From: Microthyrium microscopicum
Taxonomy: Eukaryota
Assembly: GCA_010405405.1 (NCBI GenBank)
Contig: MU004234.1
Coordinates: 2,329,697 to 2,393,696 of the forward strand
DNA: 64,000 bases
Reading direction: 5' to 3'
Below are positions 38,566 through 51,382 of the stretch, in pieces. The translations under genes were made by a program, and so were the position numbers. The stretch's first letter is position 1; the number at the start of each line of letters is the position of its first letter. Below the pieces are notes generated by a model. That model was not told the DNA's origin. It saw nothing but the letters and a program-made list of their open reading frames with translations, and ran no database searches.

Positions 38566-40445
38566 TCAAATGATATTGCTCACTTCTAGTAAAGTGATCA
38601 ACGTTTGCATCTCGCCTTTCCCGGTCTCCTTTGCCGCGTCGAGGTTGCCTTTGGCGATCATATCATACATCTCGCTCTTGCTAACTGTCAATCTCAAATC
38701 CGCGAAGCTACTGCTCAAAGCAGTCCCAAAAGGCCTACTCCGGTATGTCAATGTCCCATTTCGCAATGTTAAAGTCCACGTTGTCTGATCGTCCGGTATA
38801 TCAATTACGATCGCCTGGACAGATATTTCGCAAGCCTTCGGTCCGTCTATCTGCAACGAGAGAGCGTCGAGCCAATCTTCTACAGTTGATTGCGGGTTCA
38901 TGGCGATCACACTCTGTGCTGCTCCTTGAGTCTCGCTTCCAAGTTCTTGTGCGGCAGTGAGGTAGAAATTTCGCCAGACTGCATTTTCAGCACCGAAACC
39001 GAGCTGCTGGTATACCGATGCCAGTTTCTGTCGTCCTTGTTCGTTACCAGGCTCCGCCGCTACAACATGATCAAGCAGTGTGGCAGCGAAACGAAGATCG
39101 TCTCTGTTGACGAACTCCTTTGCCTTTTCAATAACAGCATCGGCGCCACCCATACATTCAACATAGCGTTTCCCCTCCTCCTTTGGAGGATGCTTCCACA
39201 TATTGGCTGGGTTCCCATCGAACCAGGTCATGTAACGCTGGTAAATACCCTTTACGTTCTGCGACAAGCAGCCGTAAAACTCGCCGGCATACCATTCTTG
39301 TTTTAAAGCTGATGGGAGCTCGAGCTGTTCCGCTATTTCAACTCCAGTCATCCCTTGGTTCATAAGCCTAACCGTCTGGTCATGCATATAGCCATACAAG
39401 TCTCGTTGATCTGAAATGAACCTGACGATGTTCTCGTGGCCCCAGGTCGGCCAATGATGACCGGAAAATACCACATCAGAATCGAATCCATACAAATCGA
39501 GTGTCTCGTCCAAATGCTTAGACCACTTCTTTGCGTCGCGAACTTGCGCACCGCGTAAGGTGATCACATTATGCATCGTGTGAGTTGCACACTCAGCGAT
39601 ATAAAGAGCACGCTGATCAGGAAAAAAGACGTTGATCTCGCATGGCGCTTCTGTTTCAGGCACCATCTGGAACACCATTTTTACGCCATCGATAATTCGC
39701 TCCTCGCCAGTGTCGTTGATACTGTCATTCGGCGGTACAATTCTTGTGGTCCCGCTGGAAGCTGCCATCCCTAAGCCACAACCCCTACGAGTAATTGATC
39801 AGTATGCTGACCGACTAATCACGCGTGATAGAGGAATATTTACACATGGCCATCTGGTCCAATAGGCAAAGATCCGCCAAACATAAATACTGCACGTCTT
39901 CGCATCGCGGGACCGGCTACAATATTCTCTTTGAGCACTGCATCCATGAAGCCAGCTGGAGCGATAATTGGTATTTCGCCCTGATCCCCACCAGCTGCTG
40001 AAAGAACACCCTGGGCACCGCCGAAGTGATCGTAGTGACTGTGAGAATACAGTACAGCTTGAACTGATCGTGGTCCGCGATGGGCGCGATAGAACTCTAG
40101 TGCTGCAGCTGCACACTCAGTTGATGCAAGAACGTCAAGCACAATTACACCAGTTTTGCCTTCTACCAGCGTCATGTTTGAGATGTCGAAGCCGCGCACT
40201 TGATACACGCCCTTGGTTACCTCGAATAGGCCATGCTTGCGGGTTAACTGTCCTTGTCGCCATAACTTCGGATTGACAGTCGAAGGACAATCTTCATTCA
40301 CAAAGTTGTAGTCCTCGTTGTTCCAGACATTGTGTCCAGCTTCATTTTTAATAACACAGGTGTCGAGAGATGCGACGAGACCTCTGTCAGCATTTATGAA
40401 GTCGGCTTCGTCCCGGAACGAAGGCTGAATGATCGGAGTGGACAT
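38566..40445 (-). CDS. Alkyl/aryl sulfatase, metallo-beta-lactamase fold (SdsA1/Bds1 family)
   Basis: TVNPKLWRQ, YQVRGFDISNMT, YSHSHYDHFGG, PETEAP, HNVITLRGAQVRD and HHWPTWG, plus an SCP2-like C-terminus. Intron about 39787-39843. Confidence 0.92.
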
Positions 40446-40946
40446 GGCCTGAACATTAAGACGCAATTTGTTCTCGAGAGATGCGGGAAATATGCTTATC
40501 AATTCGAAGGAGATTGACAAGGACAAGGTCACAAATTCACTTATTAATCCAGTGTGTAATACAGATATGGCGATAAGCTTGATGTTGACCGCAGAGGTTG
40601 TGATTTTAGCTGATTCCTAATCAAGATCTACAACAGGCCAATGAGACCGATTTCAATTGTAATATCTGGTATATAGATTGATAGATCTGGACCAAACTTG
40701 ACAGATATCTCCCTTTTGGGCCATTTTTGACACCATTTGGCAGGTCAATATTCTGTCAATTGGCCGTTTAGATTCTCATACAATGTTTCAAATTCTCTGC
40801 CACAACAACATTCAGGCCATGGTATTGCAGGCACGCGCATTTACACAATTCGACGATAACGTAGGGAGCAATCTTATAGATGCAGCAACCCGCGCTTCTG
40901 GCGACAAATAGGATCAGAATCTCAACAACCACATCGCAAAGACTTT

Positions 40947-42691: not shown

Positions 42692-44266
42692 CTATTTCGT
42701 ATGTTGCTTTCTACCTGATGCCGGCTCGCCCAGCATATCATCTGGCACATCATTCCAACTGTCCATCACCCTCGTACCTGGATGAGCATTTCCACTGATC
42801 CCTTTTGGCAACTTCCGTAACAAAGTAGCCTTGCCATCTGTCTGCTCCTCATCACTCGAGTCATCGTCCAGATCCAGGTCCGGCGGTGGCCGCCTCCTAG
42901 GCGCGGCGGGTCCATCATAGAATTGATTTGGTGTACGTCCAAGAACCTGGTCAGCCTTACTGAGCCCGTGCTCGACGTCTGGTATGCGGGGATCTCGAGC
43001 GCCCCATCCTGCAGCTCGCTCAGTTTGAGCTTGTCTTTCCAGTTCTCGCTCTCGTTCTTGCCGCAGTTGCGCGTGCTGATGCTCCCATCGATGATTCTTC
43101 TCCCACCGCCAGCCGTCTCCGATCGAATTCATGATGGGAAATGGCCAAAGCCAAACATTCGGTCCCATCACTGCGTGTAAATTGCGCTTCCAGCCAAGAT
43201 CAAAAGCGTTCGGCAGTTTCTCATTGTCGCGTTCATCAAGGTAGTCATTATATTGATCATATTCCCGTCGACGAGATTGTTCTTCCCAGCCCAGCGTTTG
43301 CCGAAGAGAGTTTTGGGCCGCAGATCCAGTTTCCTCGCCTTCCTCAGGTCTGGTTATTCCAGGAAGAGCGTTTACATGGATTTTGGCAATCTCGTGTCCG
43401 ATATCTCGGAGTTGCTCGCCAAACGAATGGTGCTCTGGGTCCTCATAGGTCTGATTGTGATTGAGTTGGCGGGAGCCCATTGATCTCAGTGGACTGAGAT
43501 ATCTAGTCTTTTCCAAACTTTCAATGGTTGTCCGGTTTCTTGTTGTCAAGTAAATGTGATAGCCGGTAAATCCCGTTATGACTAGTCCAATGATGCCAGA
43601 CACTACTGACAAAACGACAAAATGTACTGGCATCATTACCTCGCCTGTTCTTGTATCTTCAACAATCTCTGACCATAACCATGTCGCGCTAACCAAAAAG
43701 CAGAGCCAGGAAAATAGTGATGTATAAGTGAGAAACAGAATAAATGCTTTGTAATTGTGAAGTCCAACGCAAGTGGCAAGCCACGGACAGTGATGGTCCA
43801 TCTTCAACACACAGCGGCGACAGCTCGAGCAGTGATGAGTGCGATCTGGTTTGAGGCATTGGCACTTCTTGCAGTACCGTAGCTCGCCCCTCGAATTGAC
43901 CGTGATCGAAGAGAGATGAACATCTTCAGTATGGGGAACGGCGACCATAGGTGATCCGGGGTCTGTAAACACCGCGGTGTAGTATGACCAGTTGAGGAGA
44001 ACGTAAAGGGTAATTCCGGCTAGAATATATACGGTTCCTACCATCTGTTAGCAGCTAGCTCTTCATCATGCTCTGCAAGATGTCATACCAAAGCGTTTCT
44101 GAGGAAGCATCCCTATTTGAACCTCTGTCCATACAGCCCATGTTGTAAGACTGCCAACGAAAACCAGAGGGAAGAAAGTGAATATACTACAGCACATTCG
44201 CTCCAGCGTGTGTAGACATGAGCGTCGTCCTCTCCGAAAAGAGATGCCTGTTGGAGAAGGCAACAT
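42692..44266 (-). CDS. PFA3: DHHC palmitoyltransferase, Pfa3-like
   Basis: RYCKKCQCLKPDRTHHCSSCRRCVLKMDHHCPW, TTIE, NAFDLGWKRN and four TM helices. One intron near the 5' end. Confidence 0.88.
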
Positions 44267-44812: not shown

Positions 44813-46053
44813 CTAGGCTAGCTTTGCAAGCCCGACAGTCTCTTCTCCCACATTGAAGTCGATATAATGGGTCTGAAAGAATGCTGCAATTTGTCAATGT
44901 GAGGATACACAGTTCGCTGCAAGGTACATACGATGTCCGACAACCCACAAGTCAGGCGTCAGAGAATTGTTGAAATCTTGCCCAGACACAATTGCAGTGC
45001 AGTTGTTATTCCCATTATCCTTGAACTTGAACGCCTCCACAGGAATGTTGAAGATGGAACTTCTTTTGCTCACACCGACAGTCTGGTTGGCTAACGTTGA
45101 TTCTGGTGGAAAGCTATATCCAACGACTGGCGGTTCGTTGCACGGGTAGTATCCAACAAGGGTTGGCAAACAGCCGGCTTCGTTGACCATGATCCCTTGG
45201 ATGCCCGTGGCCTCGAAGATTTGCTGGACTACACTGATGGGCCTGAAATCGCGTCAGTCCACTCCATCCTTTCCGAGGAATTTGAACCTACCCAATTACG
45301 GTTGACTACCCAGTGTCAAGTTCGATCAGTGCGTCTTTGGACACGATCTTATTGTTGACTGCAATATCTCCATTCAAGAACCACTCTCCAATAACCGGTG
45401 TCGTAGTCAAGCTGCCCTTGAACTTGCTCTTGTCCACAAATCCAAGCGCAACCTCACCTTTACCTTTAGTACCTAGCGACACGCCAAAGCGGCATTCTTT
45501 GGTCTTTTTTTCGTTGCAGAGGGTGTGGAAAAATGGAGTACTGTTGAAGCCCGATACGATCTGGCCAGCGAAGCCGACTATGCCATCATGCGGGATGCTT
45601 GAGTTGTCCAAGCAGGCTACGACCGAGCCTATTGTTTAATTATCGGCGATCAGCCCTCCCAGACCAATCTGGTCGAGATATTCGGTGGCATTGATCTGGG
45701 GGTGTAAGCTTGGGCTGCTATGAAGAGAAGATCCTTACGCTTGAGCTTCCGCATCCGTTGGACTGAGTGGTGCCATAGCTGAGCTGCCCGACTGCACTTA
45801 AACCGATTGAAGCTGAACTAGGTCTGTAATTGCCAGTGTTGAGGACAACATCAGCTGATCCAGAATCAAAGAGGAGACTAAGGTTCTTTGAAGCACCAAC
45901 TGCGAAGCTTGCGAACCAAAATCCTCCGTCCAACGTCAAGCCAATCTTCGATTCCCCTTTGTGGATGTATGATATAGAGCGATCGATGAATCCAGTTTTC
46001 GGCGCTGCCTGAACAAGCAGAAAAGCAAGGCCAAGCAGTAACAATCTCTTCAT
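44813..46053 (-). pseudogene. Secreted pepsin-like (A1) aspartic protease with two in-frame nonsense codons
   Basis: Signal peptide, FDSGSAD, YG, DGIVG, LDTG and WVVG..FF. TAA at 45636-38 (ADN*TIG) and TAG at 45306-08 (DTG*STVIGP) fall inside otherwise intact exons. Confidence 0.75.
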
Positions 46054-47049
46054 TGTAAGAATCGCGTGGAAGTTATTGAGAAATTTGCTATGATTGAGAT
46101 ATAATAGCTAGCTCCATTGCATAGGTATGCTAAGGTCTATATACTTCACAGCTGCTCAAGGCAGCAAAACAAGAGAAGGCTTGGTTGGCGGCACCTTAAT
46201 TTAACGCGCAATTCAAAAGGCGATGAGCATTATGTCCTTACCAGACCCAGGTTGGTAAACGAAGTCAAGCTGTTGGTATTGGATGTTGCTCTAACCAAAA
46301 GCAGCCGGATAGACGAACATAACGCCTCGATGCAAAATTAGGCACCCTCTCGCTATTTGGGGGCTGGGTGGCTAGGGACGATCCCTACACCTTTGGCAGA
46401 GCCTCCATCCTATTACTCCCACGGAAGTTGGACATCAAGCTGACCTGAGCCATCTCCACAGCAGTGTGTCGTTATCAAACTCTGCTGCCACCAGGTACTG
46501 TATGACGTGCGCGGAAATGAACCCACGAGACCGCTCAGAGCGACCAGGATCAGAAAAGCTCGTCTAATGACGCGAGTTACCATAACATTGCCTACATTTG
46601 CTTTAACGAGAGGAGAAAAGGACCGACTGGACAGCTAGCGTGTTGAGGTTTGGTCAGTACATAGCGAGTCCTGAAATGGCCTGACAAACCTCATGCCTTT
46701 GGCTTCATAATCACAAGCACAGTGCAAGAGCTAGGGCGAAAGGAAACATATGGTGATGGGATCCGACCATTTCATGTTACTCTTCAATACAACAACATCA
46801 TAGATTGCACTCTTCTATCAACGGCGATGGCTACCATCGCACTTCGTAACGAGAGTATCCTTATCTTCTCGCCTTGATTGATATCTTTGGCTACTATACG
46901 CGCACTCCATGGGAGGTCAAATATTCTCAAAGAAAGCGTAGTACGTGGTAAACATCACACTCGACGGGAGCGCGACATCCTGTCGTCCAGTTGACAATCA
47001 TTGGTACCATTGAATATCTAAACAAGCCCAGAAGCTCACTACTAATACA

Positions 47050-48280
47050 TCATGCCGTGCGATCCTCTCCGAAACTTCCTCCTCCGGCCCGACCATCCAA
47101 GTCTGTAAAGTCGTTCAGTCCGCAAACTTCGAATATCTTCTTTGGCGTAATTTCACTCGGCGTACCCATCAGTCCAGTTTTCTTTAATTTGACCAGGGCA
47201 TCTCTGATTCCTACGTAGGCAGGTGCAACAGATGCAAGCGACAAGATCATGACCTTGAAGCCCATCTCCTTGGCTTCGTCATGAGATACCGTAGGGGTGG
47301 CACCGTGCTCGATAAGGTTCATTAAGGTTGGCATAGGTGCTAGATCAGCAACTGCGTTCCTCATTTCCTCTTTCGAGCGAAGACCTTCCAGGAAGAGAAC
47401 ATCCACACCAAGCTTTTGAGCTTCTTTCAGTCTATGGATAGCGTCATCGTATCCTAGCGGTTGCAAAGCATCTGTTCTCGCCATGATAACAATATCTGAG
47501 CCTATGCGTTCTCTGGCTTCAACTGCTGCTCGTATACGTGCAAGGTATTCGTCCAAGGGAACAACTTCCTTTCCACCAAGATGTCCACAACGCTTTTGTA
47601 GCACTTGGTCTTCAATGTGAAAACCTGCGATGCCCTACACTCGTTAGTGGAAAAACACATTGATGTATTATTGTTTTCAACACGCATAGAAAACCTCATA
47701 CATGATAAAGCCCCATCACACTCGGTAGTAGCCTTATGATGCTATGGGAGCGGCCCAGTGCTCTGATAGTATCGCTCCGCCGCTAAAGAGATCGATGAAG
47801 TTGGATTTAAATGGAAAGGACTTACAGCTCGAGCGTATGCTTCCACTGTTCGGGACACCATTATTGGGCCTCCATATCCCGTGTCCATGTCGGCAATAAC
47901 AGGAACGGAACGATCAAGATTGGCGATCATTGTGGCATGCTCTATCATATCCGTTTGAGTGCATAGACCCAAGTCTGCGGTGCCTAGCTTAGATGCTGAA
48001 GTGCCTGCGCCAGTCTTGTAGTCATGGTGAGTACCAAACTCTTGGGATATTGTGGGTTGAAACTTACCATATACAAGCAGTCGAAGCCAACTTCCAACGC
48101 GGTGCGAGCCGATAAACCATCATACACTCCCGGTGCGAAGACGAAACCGTTGGGATCGTTGAGCATTTCCCGCAACTTGGCTGCTGCGGAGACTGTCACG
48201 TCCACATGGCCATTTGATCCATTATGATCTCCATTACCATTAGTGGCATGAGAAACATCCTCGGTGAGTTGTAGAGGCAT
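47050..48280 (-). CDS. oahA: Oxaloacetate acetylhydrolase-type enzyme (isocitrate lyase/PEP mutase superfamily)
   Basis: APGVYDGLSAR, YMTGAGT, ADMDTGYGGP, HIEDQV, KRCGH, ARTDA, and MGFKVMILS with Ser at the OAH marker position. Introns 48015-48067 and 47635-47825. Confidence 0.8.
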
Positions 48281-49229
48281 TGCTTTGAAATTTAAACGTG
48301 TAAGTTGGTGCTGATTGCAAATATTTGTTTGAAAAGTTAAATTATAATGTAAGGTTCAAAGCAATAACCAATTTGCCAAGCAGATAGTATCATTTTATGT
48401 CATCCCTGAAGATATCGTGTTGCCATTTGTGTCTCGGAATATCTTTCTCTTGAGTATAAAATTGTCACTTTTGAGTAGCACTAACGTAGTACTTACGCAC
48501 CTTGACGAAAAGGCGCAGCGCAGATCCAATCTAGATAGTCTTTTTGCACCCAATCGGTGTACAAAAGCAGAATGTGAATCTGGTTCCGGAATCTGTACTG
48601 AGGCATTTCACCTGTACCATTACCGCATTGAAGAATTTTTGTATCCATTTCCGGGAACAACATGTGAGTTACAGATGGACATCGGCGACAAGCTGTAGTG
48701 CATATCAGATCTGCAAATCGGATCTGCATGTCCCATCGACTTGACATGGTTGCATCGACCCAATAACCGGGCTCTCACATTGATCTCCATCCAATTATTC
48801 GAAATCTCGAAATGCCATGTCAGATAAGCACCGTGGGCATTACAGCATTTCGCATTTCTAGTGCTGCTACTAGCGACGAGACAACAAGCAACAGGTTACC
48901 GTGATCCACAAAAAATAACGTCACTCTTGACTACCTTTACGCATTGCTTGACATTGCAACCGAGCTGTACCTTTTAGCGCGATGTAGATAGGGGTGTTGG
49001 ATGTTGTTGTCTTACTCCAGCATGAACATGGAAAGAAACTCCATCGACGTAATGTACCTCACAGCCTAAGCGAATTGGCCTGCTGGTTTCTAGTCCATAT
49101 GCCCTTTTTCACATTTCATCAGAACATAATTTTACAATTTCAGTGTTTCCGTGACTGTCCTTTTGCAATAGAAGTCGTGTTTGTTTATCTATTCAAAGCG
49201 ATCCCAGTGTTCGCTCGAAGTTCGTCGCC

Positions 49230-50124
49230 ATGATGGAGCCAAAAGCAATACCTGACGAAGCCCATCCTCGAGATGTAGAGCAAGCAAGTGAGGATTCGTC
49301 TGAACATGTATTCAAGGTTGTTCCGAGCCATTGGTCCTGCAACGTGAACACGTCCTTGACCTCGATTCCAATGATCCTCTGCTGTTTCTGCTCAGGGTTA
49401 ATCGATTCTACTGTCTTCAATGCTTGGGGTGTCTTTGCGACCATGCAAACTGGTATGTCACTTGTCATTCTGTCGCGTGCTTTGGCATATATCTGGACGA
49501 ATGGACCTGATGAACATTTTGCTTGTAGGCAATACCGTGATTCTCGCACTAGGTGCAAGTTCGCAGCCTTCAGGCCATCCACATGCCTGGCTACAAGCAC
49601 TACTCGCCTTATCATTCTTCTTCATCGGCGCTCTATTCACGTCTAGAGTAACAACATTCCTCGGACCACTCCGCCGAACGACTCTCGCCCTTTCGTTTCT
49701 CCTCCAGACGTCCCTCATCGTCACCGCGGCAGCCTTGATCCAGTCGGCAGTGGTTCCTGGCATCATACCACAGGGCCAGGAGTTCTTCATTCAGCTAGTG
49801 CCCCTTCCGATGCTGTCATTTCAAGCAGCAATGCAAAGTGTCACTTCACGACAACTCAAATGCGAACTGCCCACCACCGTGCTGACAAGTGTCATCACTG
49901 ATATCGGAAACGACAAAGACCTCTTCGCGGGACCAACAGGTAATTGGGCAAGGAATAGACGTATTGGCGCGGTTGTATTCTTGCTGCTTGGTGGGATCAT
50001 CGGTGGATGGTTGAGCAGGACATCTGAGGGTATGCCAGCCGCGCTTTGGTTCGCTGCTGGCGTGAAGGCTTGTTTGACCGTAGCATGGCTTTTCTGGCGC
50101 CCTGAAACTGCTGTTGTGGAATGA
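49230..50124 (+). CDS. DUF1275/YoaK-family multi-TM protein, candidate oxalate exporter
   Basis: SGLIDS, FATMQTGNT (across intron 49453-49528), SFQAAMQ, ELPTTVLTS, RNRR and GGIIGG; about six TM helices. Confidence 0.85.
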
Positions 50125-50776: not shown

Positions 50777-50888
50777 TTGACGATTGACGATTGACGATTG
50801 ACGATTGACGATTGACGATTGACGATTGACGATTGACGATTGACGATTGACGATTGACGATTGACGATTGACGACTGACGACTGACGA
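50777..50888. repeat. Heptanucleotide microsatellite (TTGACGA)14(CTGACGA)2
   Basis: Direct reading of the tandem array. Confidence 0.95.
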
Positions 50889-51044
50889 TTTTATGACTAA
50901 TGATTTTGTGACTGATGATTTCCAAAACTTGCGACATCATTTTATATATAAACCCAAAATCACCTTATATACCCCCAATACGTCTTATATAGAGAGACAG
51001 GACCATGCTCAAACCTCTTTAAGGGTTTGTGTCATTAGTGTCCC

Positions 51045-51382
51045 GACGACCTCTTTACGAGTTTCCATTGGGATCTCTGACGACCTCTCCACGAGTTTCC
51101 ATTGGGATCTCTGACGACCTCTCTACGAGTTTCCACTGGGATCTCTGACGACCTCTCCACGAGTTTCCATTGGGATCTCTGACGACCTCTCTACGAGTTT
51201 CCACTGGGATCTCTGACGACCTCTTTACGAGTTTCCATTGGGATCTCTGACGACCTCTCTACGAGTTTCCATTGGGATCTCTGACGACCTCTCTATGAGT
51301 TTCCATTGGGATCTCTGACGACCTCTCTATGAGTTCCCATTGGGATCCTGACGACCTCTCTACGAGTTCCCATTGGGATCTC
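51045..51382. repeat. 34-bp minisatellite, 10 copies (GACGACCTCTCTACGAGTTTCCATTGGGATCTCT)
   Basis: Units start at 51045, 51079, 51113 ... 51317 and 51350. Few substitutions and no spacers. Confidence 0.95.

Follow-up and report, generated by a model that had tools for sequence, protein, structure and literature searches.

Within a 64-kb stretch of contig MU004234.1 of the Dothideomycete fungus Microthyrium microscopicum (hereafter, the window, that is, the whole stretch of DNA analysed), two genes that are transcribed head-to-head encode, respectively, a lyase of the isocitrate lyase (ICL)/phosphoenolpyruvate (PEP)-mutase superfamily and a membrane protein of the DUF1275 family. The lyase falls in the subfamily that includes oxaloacetate acetylhydrolase (OAH) and 2,3-dimethylmalate lyase (DMML), and carries the serine that distinguishes OAH from DMML. 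The pair is probably an instance of a recurrent, little-noticed association of OAH-type lyases with DUF1275 proteins, here in a variant built on a non-canonical, Ser-bearing lyase. Quite possibly, although we hold this reading tentatively, the divergent unit of a cytosolic, marker-Ser lyase of the OAH/DMML subfamily and a DUF1275 protein represents this recurrent pair in the capacity of making and exporting oxalate. Under this scenario, the lyase would cleave oxaloacetate into oxalate and acetate, the DUF1275 protein would be expressed from the shared spacer, and it would move oxalate, or another small carboxylate of the lyase reaction, across a membrane. We infer that the lyase may make oxalate, that the two genes may be co-regulated, and that the DUF1275 protein may transport oxalate. 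The features of the pair are the following.

48280..48068, 48014..47826 and 47634..47050 (stop included), minus strand: lyase gene, with a coding sequence of 987 nt that translates into 328 aa
48068..48280, minus strand: lyase exon 1, 71 aa, with the ATG start; the junction of CLYM with TGAGT is continuous in relatives
47826..48014, minus strand: lyase exon 2, 63 aa, containing TGAGTSAS and IADMDTGYGG; aligns to relatives
47050..47634, minus strand: lyase exon 3, 194 aa plus stop, containing the KRCGH gating loop and the marker Ser
47581..47595, minus strand: KRCGH catalytic/gating-loop motif, residues 148-152, kept in all listed aligned rows that cover this stretch
47239..47241, minus strand: codon of Ser266, the marker of OAH (Ser) versus DMML (Pro), within VMILSLAS (47230-47253)
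48281..49229, no strand: divergent intergenic spacer, presumed bidirectional promoter region, 949 bp from ATG to ATG, GC content 0.42-0.46
48375..48380, plus strand: GCCAAG, a hexamer resembling the PacC consensus and the only GCCARG in the spacer
49230..49452 and 49529..50124, plus strand: DUF1275 gene, with a 76-nt intron, encoding 272 aa
49230..49452, plus strand: DUF1275 exon 1, N-terminal tail and first helix, ending in MQTG; PF06912 E-value 1.7e-05
49529..50124, plus strand: DUF1275 exon 2, 197 aa plus stop; PF06912 E-value 1.5e-27

An initial annotation of this DNA had described two head-to-head genes separated by a 949-bp spacer with a GCCAAG hexamer, and all these elements are present. 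The assignment of the lyase to the ICL/PEP-mutase superfamily with a KRCGH motif is likewise borne out, with exon 3 matching both the PEP_mutase domain (PF13714, E-value 2.1e-17) and the ICL domain (PF00463, E-value 1.3e-10); exon 2, scored alone, reaches 29.7 bits against PF13714 (E-value 6e-07), under the cut-off of 31.5 bits. The two lyase introns, of 53 and 191 nt, both have GT..AG ends, and both exon junctions align without gaps to full-length relatives. No identical (100%) match to exon 3 was detected in either length class of a set of 5.8 billion proteins, and the lyase gene seems to have been left unmodelled in the public annotation.

The other predicted member of the pair, the DUF1275 membrane protein, is confirmed by the match of its two-exon, 272-aa product to PF06912, to which exon 2 contributes 97.1 bits against a cut-off of 25.4. 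Exon 2 is identical (100%) to a deposited protein, P0385, annotated as 'DUF1275 domain protein [Microthyrium microscopicum]', the deposited model of which comprises 225 aa and starts from an internal Met; the orthologs P0390, P0394, and P0396 contain the same N-terminal part, which backs the splice and the start of the 272-aa product at 49230.

Adjacent lyase and DUF1275 genes in other fungi

The same two Pfam families lie side by side at OAH genes in other ascomycetes. In Aspergillus niger N402, the accessible tables list OAH as g6378 / ATCC64974_63780 / SPB48756.1, with PF13714, and the next model, g6379 / ATCC64974_63790 / SPB48757.1, with PF06912 (PMC8224569). In the citT deletant, where, according to the authors, surplus citrate goes to oxalate, OAH is up on glucose with a log2 fold change of 2.02 (adjusted p 3.9e-67) and the DUF1275 gene with one of 0.91 (adjusted p 1.2e-8); both genes are tabled as up on both carbon sources, glucose and citrate, and the flanking models 63770 and 63800 appear solely in the wild-type citrate-versus-glucose sheet among those available (PMC8224569). 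In Sclerotinia sclerotiorum, SS1G_08218 (oah1) is followed by SS1G_08219, a 241-aa 'duf1275 domain protein' with IPR010699, and, in the accessible table, the two have values in the last infection time-point column only, 5.63 and 3.57, respectively (PMC5372324). For Botrytis cinerea on infected tomato, log2 fold changes of 8.65 are given for BCIN_12g01020 (oahA) and of 5.04 for its neighbor BCIN_12g01030, the family of which is unstated there (PMC7214349), and we consider OAH-DUF1275 adjacency probable in this fungus too. Published tables document adjacency in A. niger and S. sclerotiorum and make it probable in B. cinerea; the nearest relatives in Verruconis are on separate contigs. In addition, in Coleophoma, a DUF1275 protein (P0438) and a lyase of the Ser clade described below (P0313) are each encoded on a contig of 2,943,000 bp; that this is one and the same contig is suggestive only. 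With a few DUF1275 and a few lyase paralogs among some 10^4 genes, chance adjacency can be roughly estimated at well under 1% per genome.

The initial annotation knew of no description of this linkage, an assessment that holds in part. The accessible literature on DUF1275 and oxalate nowhere discusses the pairing, the authors who reported the A. niger and S. sclerotiorum genes do not comment on it in the available parts of their papers, the words 'adjacent' and 'oxalate transporter' are absent from the text of PMC8224569 as far as it was accessible, and a search of the main texts in the literature covered gave no mention of the gene names An10g00810 and An10g00830. Conserved synteny at the OAH locus, however, was reported by Joosten et al. 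in 2008, according to the accessible portion of a secondary source (PMC3256194).

We also compared contig sizes among metagenomic relatives of the two proteins (120 lyase relatives against the first 85 of the 119 non-self DUF1275 relatives listed). There were 3 exact matches, 2 of them physically impossible, with about 0.8-1.0 expected by chance overall and 0.45 for feasible pairs; this is chance level, and linkage from same-size contigs was rejected. One pair, P0071/P0391 (2877 bp), is an unverified lead from this comparison.

Within the window itself, the spacer contributes little to the case for shared regulation. The GCCAAG hexamer had been offered as a PacC site and, hence, as regulatory evidence, a claim that does not survive counting: the 64-kb window contains 70 GCCARG hexamers, or roughly one in every 914 bp, compared to 62.0 +/- 7.35 occurrences after shuffling, with 70 or more in 17 of 100 shuffles. 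Because about one GCCARG is expected per 949 bp by chance, a single GCCAAG carries no weight; there is no promoter enrichment, and no shared regulatory element was found in the 949-bp spacer, the PacC-like site being at chance level. Thus, of the co-regulated unit for oxalate synthesis and secretion that had been put forward, what speaks in favor is that, in A. niger and S. sclerotiorum, a DUF1275 gene adjoins the OAH gene and is induced together with it, whereas two of its original props, the PacC site and the kinship with FpOAR considered below, fall away.

The marker serine and the membrane protein

The residue that separates OAH from DMML corresponds to Ser281 in A. niger OAH and is Pro in DMML, according to the accessible part of PMC3256194, which cites Joosten 2008 for this. 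The Ser in the FKVMILS motif of the window lyase had been proposed to occupy this position, and the HMMER alignment to solved structures agrees, placing the query LSL opposite FSF of Cryphonectria parasitica OAH (MIFSFAT) and FPF of A. niger DMML (IIFPFAA). Among 384 relatives and the query, the marker column contains 199 Pro, 140 Ser, 20 gaps, and 26 other residues. In a FastTree phylogeny of the exon-3 region (330 distinct rows, with rows under 90% coverage left out, P0003 among them), a single large Ser clade emerges with support 0.998, in which 121 of the 125 tips have Ser and 4 have Pro, and the query falls outside it; at strict thresholds, the marker is the single column that splits this Ser clade (97% Ser) from the fungal Pro clades (98% Pro). 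The clades are anchored by P0273 of Aspergillus wentii, with 478 bits to OAH (Protein Data Bank (PDB) entry 3lye) and 383 bits to DMML (3fa3), and by P0116 of Aspergillus uvarum, the A. niger DMML ortholog, with 596 bits to 3fa3. Because the search for longer homologs yielded no named classical OAHs, the OAH clade is anchored solely via the score of P0273 to 3lye; the representatives of clusters at 50% identity collapse the fungal subfamily too far for phylogeny.

Ser at the marker position is also found outside the main clade, in P0017, P0025, P0134, P0197, and P0231, and Pro occurs in 4 of the 125 members inside it, so the marker residue has changed more than once. A metagenomic fragment of 166 aa (P0003), which is 77-80% identical to the query, also reads ILSLA. 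The window lyase appears to belong to a lineage of the OAH/DMML subfamily that carries Ser and stands apart from canonical OAHs as well as from DMML orthologs; the Ser in this lineage could be either ancestral or convergent. The identification of the lyase as OAH is upheld by the marker Ser and KRCGH and undercut by its position outside the canonical OAH clade and by its agreement with that clade at 7 of 21 clade-typical positions.

Several lyases deserve mention in their own right. Many of the Ser-clade lyases of lichen-forming fungi and Leotiomycetes (within P0276-P0312) are 400-520 aa long, with long N-terminal extensions that classical OAHs lack. Two lyases, P0296 and P0364, both with Pro at the marker, are fused to the fungal transcription-factor domain PF04082. 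P0275, labelled as Quercus suber, falls in the fungal Ser clade, and, among the DUF1275 proteins, P0405, labelled as the chytrid Rhizophlyctis rosea, nests within Dothideomycetes beside Verruconis; in both cases, the source assembly appears to be contaminated with fungal sequence or mislabelled.

The DUF1275 protein has about five strong hydrophobic segments in the hydropathy profile, and its AlphaFold2 (AF2) model is all-helical, with 6 long helices (18-26 residues) and 3 short ones (pLDDT 85.9, pTM 0.84). The hydropathy and the model together depict a predicted polytopic helical protein with about 6 transmembrane segments (TMS). A search of the PDB with the model produced no fold match at E-values up to 0.001; the top weak matches are transporters of the major facilitator superfamily (MFS), with TM-scores of 0.37-0.51 on the query. 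These would be compatible with the placement of the family in TCDB, where DUF1275 is TC 9.B.143, an uncharacterized 6-TMS unit or family inside the MFS superfamily in the accessible parts of PMC7778945 and PMC8154325, although such weak matches are no evidence. The ESM Atlas search returned further DUF1275 clusters only, and the NCBIfam search gave no matching model.

The window DUF1275 protein shares a Dothideomycete clade (support 100/100) with P0408, another paralog from M. microscopicum, and this clade is nested in a group of 14 of the 21 rows (99/96) along with Leotiomycete, Sordariomycete, and lichen proteins; P0438 of Coleophoma is a member of this 14-row group. Fungi appear to carry several such paralogs: four are listed for Aspergillus fumigatus in the accessible part of PMC3576715, and there are two from M. 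microscopicum (P0385 and P0408) among the matches listed.

The initial annotation had taken FpOAR, the oxalate-efflux protein of Fomitopsis palustris, for a DUF1275 protein. This is not borne out by the accessible parts of two papers in which FpOAR, used as a BLASTP query and in alignment, led to relatives with the SNARE_assoc domain, HbOT1/2 and AtOT (PMC9738940, PMC10003554). The window protein shows no SNARE_assoc match, PF06912 being its sole Pfam match at E-values up to 0.01. It was therefore rejected as an efflux protein of the FpOAR type (SNARE_assoc/DedA-like), with the family of FpOAR judged from these relatives.

Weighing the readings

Several lines of evidence weigh against oxalate synthesis and export by the window pair, starting with the lyase. 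The scores of exon 3 to the solved structures, 228.5 bits to 3lye (C. parasitica OAH) and 219.8 bits to 3fa3 (A. niger DMML), are nearly equal, and, in 21 clade-typical columns obtained at looser thresholds, the query is Ser-clade-like in 7, Pro-clade-like in 11, and neither in 3, with the DMML-like loop EHGATP in place of the OAH loop ENGHSP. In a maximum likelihood (ML) tree of 42 rows and 315 columns (the query and its 4 FastTree clade-mates, 17 of the 125 Ser-clade and 12 of the 94 Pro-clade members, and 8 outgroups, chosen by coverage and mutual identity below 72%), the 17 sampled Ser-clade rows form a clade (100/99) without the query, which groups with four proteins that carry Pro (96/89). 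Constraining the query to the Ser clade, a group named post hoc, with the tree already in view, costs 17.05 log-likelihood units (approximately unbiased (AU) test p 0.077), so that this placement is disfavored, not rejected. In a tree of 30 hand-picked rows that includes P0003, the query and P0003 form a pair (100/100) on a long stem, as a lineage of its own in a polytomy that also contains the OAH clade, several Pro groups, and the Ser pair P0017/P0025. Because Ser occurs in other lineages, Ser alone is no proof of OAH. A phylogeny against OAH and DMML, the check that had been called for, gives a split answer: the query lies outside the Ser clade, and it is also separate from P0116, the ortholog of A. 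niger DMML, which belongs to a different Pro group in the ML tree.

The membrane protein and the pairing add further points on the same side. The accessible literature assigns no function to the DUF1275 family; no DUF1275 protein with a demonstrated substrate appears in the accessible sources, and TCDB lists the family as uncharacterized. The neighbors of OAH in A. niger and S. sclerotiorum are likened to the window protein by family assignment only, and the sole Aspergillus protein among the 120 DUF1275 matches listed (P0495) belongs to the other DUF1275 group. In Verruconis gallopava, the closest lyase (P0004, on a 339,384-bp contig) and the closest DUF1275 protein (P0420, on a 734,237-bp contig) are encoded on different contigs. 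A scan of genome contigs with the fungal DUF1275 alignment gave no confirmed relative, and a second scan, seeded with two plasmid YoaK proteins, yielded 80 bacterial loci, which correspond to the top 80 among 568 or more relatives of a single Novosphingobium protein. An ICL/PEP-mutase lyase is present in none of these 80 loci. Pfam names cover the clusters of open reading frames (ORFs) that occur in at least 3 loci (20 representatives of 471 ORFs), and the neighbors at this level are Alginate_exp (38 loci), DoxX (20), LysR (17), Pirin (12), GNAT (11), amidohydrolase (10), and others; there are no oxalate genes among these recurrent neighbors, a count in which a single oxc or frc would be missed. 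The sampled bacterial branch, then, gives no support for a family-wide role in oxalate transport.

As a separate observation on this bacterial branch, the two plasmid YoaK genes (L001 and L002) sit in amidohydrolase-DoxX-YoaK arrays, and, in Alphaproteobacteria, YoaK/DUF1275 recurs in an array with an amidohydrolase, DoxX, and an Alginate_exp outer-membrane protein. Such arrays may be a pointer to the function of the bacterial proteins.

These findings leave room for a somewhat unlikely alternative, in which the lyase is DMML-like or otherwise not an OAH and acts on a substituted malate or an oxaloacetate analogue in catabolism, the Ser having been acquired independently, and the gene pair would perpetuate an old association of the lyase subfamily with DUF1275 that is not about oxalate export; the DUF1275 protein could then have a different short carboxylate as its cargo, take part in transport at organelles, or be no transporter at all. 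Such a lyase would be expected where the query is found, outside the Ser clade, with Pro-bearing proteins as its nearest full-length relatives and with the larger share (11 of 21) of the clade-typical positions, the EHGATP loop among them, in the Pro-clade state; its closest full-length relative, P0004 of Verruconis (66% identity), scores 415.3 bits to DMML and 378.2 bits to OAH, and the sampled bacterial DUF1275 genes have contexts unrelated to oxalate. However, the one strictly diagnostic residue is Ser and is kept in the ortholog P0003, the documented DUF1275 neighbors are found only at genuine OAH genes, the query stands apart from P0116, and the Pro-bearing relative from Verruconis is not linked to the DUF1275 ortholog there.

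A coincidental gene order, in which the two window genes would have nothing to do with each other in function or regulation, appears quite improbable. It would be easier to accept given that a fungus can possess several DUF1275 paralogs (four in A. fumigatus in the accessible part of PMC3576715, two in M. microscopicum among the matches listed), that the spacer revealed no shared element beyond a PacC-like site at chance level, and that the closest metagenomic DUF1275 relatives have no excess of contigs in common with the lyase relatives; against it, the two Pfam families occur side by side, and are induced together, at the OAH genes of two further ascomycete classes, and the rate of adjacency roughly expected by chance is low, well under 1% per genome. 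Very improbable indeed is a decaying or silent lyase paralog next to an ordinary, independent DUF1275 gene. The lack of a 100% match for exon 3 in the 5.8-billion-protein set, where the DUF1275 neighbor from the same genome is found at 100%, might hint at this possibility, but a missing gene model is the simpler account of that absence, and the lyase gene has an unbroken reading frame, canonical GT..AG ends at its two introns, a full set of catalytic motifs, and a gap-free alignment at the junctions, with the sequence conserved in P0003.

With oxalate synthesis and export by the window pair as the reading that we tentatively prefer, the DUF1275 protein becomes a testable candidate for an ascomycete oxalate exporter. 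A broader proposition, that DUF1275 is the ascomycete oxalate exporter and is coupled to OAH-type lyases across Pezizomycotina, represented here by a lineage that reached Ser independently, we consider unlikely; were it correct, the transporter neighborhood would predict oxalate formation better than clade membership does, because the query lineage would have arrived at Ser on its own. Oxalate secretion brings about acidification and contributes to virulence in Sclerotinia and Botrytis, and oxalate is the main unwanted by-product of A. niger fermentations and underlies mineral weathering by fungi. The conserved, co-induced DUF1275 neighbor of oah is a concrete gene for deletion and assay, and, if the proposed role is true, this would be the first function for a widespread, uncharacterized membrane family. 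For annotation, the implication is that the Ser marker used for calling OAH genes is also present outside the canonical clade. The only fungal oxalate exporter named in the accessible literature that we found is FpOAR, from a basidiomycete, and a search on OAH, oxalate, exporter, and membrane protein returned only work on citrate export or secretion in A. niger.

Genomic surroundings and known systems

The rest of the window has the appearance of ordinary housekeeping and secreted-enzyme genes, and no other oxalate-pathway genes were seen among the window genes. The neighbors are the following.

38566-40616, minus strand: alkyl sulfatase (metallo-beta-lactamase, dimerization, and C-terminal domains), two ORFs, presumably split by an intron; upstream
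42692-44047: DHHC palmitoyltransferase
~44900-46107, minus strand: multi-exon secreted aspartyl protease, just downstream of the lyase gene; Pfam Asp E-value 1.8e-10 in 45309-45635
Downstream: short-chain dehydrogenase/reductase, AlkB-like 2-oxoglutarate oxygenase, and COQ5 methyltransferase

The aspartyl protease ORF at 45721-46107 has a signal-peptide-like start; acid proteases and acidification by oxalate occur together in some fungi. Downstream of the DUF1275 gene, there are two tandem arrays, at 50777-50890 (16 copies of a 7-bp unit) and 51045-51382 (10 copies of a 34-bp unit).

Among characterized enzymes, the window lyase resembles the OAHs (EC 3.7.1.1; A. niger OahA, S. sclerotiorum Oah1, B. 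cinerea OahA, and C. parasitica 3lye) in the ICL/PEP-mutase fold family, the KRCGH and IADMDTGYGG motifs, and the marker Ser, and it also shares the DUF1275 neighbor documented for A. niger and S. sclerotiorum; it differs in that it is only about 52-55% identical to the Ser-clade proteins P0273 and P0313 and has LSL for FSF and EHGATP for ENGHSP. With DMML (A. niger 3fa3 and its ortholog P0116), the query shares 57% identity to P0116, the EHGATP loop, and many Pro-clade residues, whereas it has Ser instead of Pro at the marker, IADMDT where DMML has IADADT, and a position apart from P0116 in the tree.

As a unit, the window pair is closest to 63780/63790 of A. niger and 08218/08219 of S. sclerotiorum, where the same two Pfam families are immediately adjacent and co-induced during oxalate production or infection; both of those lyases are proven OAHs, and the likeness covers adjacency and family, not orientation or spacer. 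In Acetobacter aceti, a region named uctB-oxc-uctC-duf1275 in the accessible part of PMC3720670 also places a DUF1275 gene beside oxalate-metabolizing genes, but these are catabolic genes of a bacterium (oxalyl-CoA decarboxylase and CoA-transferases), and nothing similar recurs in the 80 bacterial loci. The window protein aligns to bacterial YoaK via GL(V/I)D, (M/Q)TGN, R-x-L, and TTVLT; it lies in a fungal branch of the family, and the sampled bacterial DUF1275 genes adjoin genes for Alginate_exp, DoxX, and amidohydrolase, not a carboxylate lyase gene as in the window. Finally, FpOAR may be a functional analogue, being a small polytopic membrane protein that is said to export oxalate in the accessible parts of PMC9738940 and PMC10576180, although it comes from another family, judging by the SNARE_assoc domains of its BLASTP relatives HbOT1/2 and AtOT.

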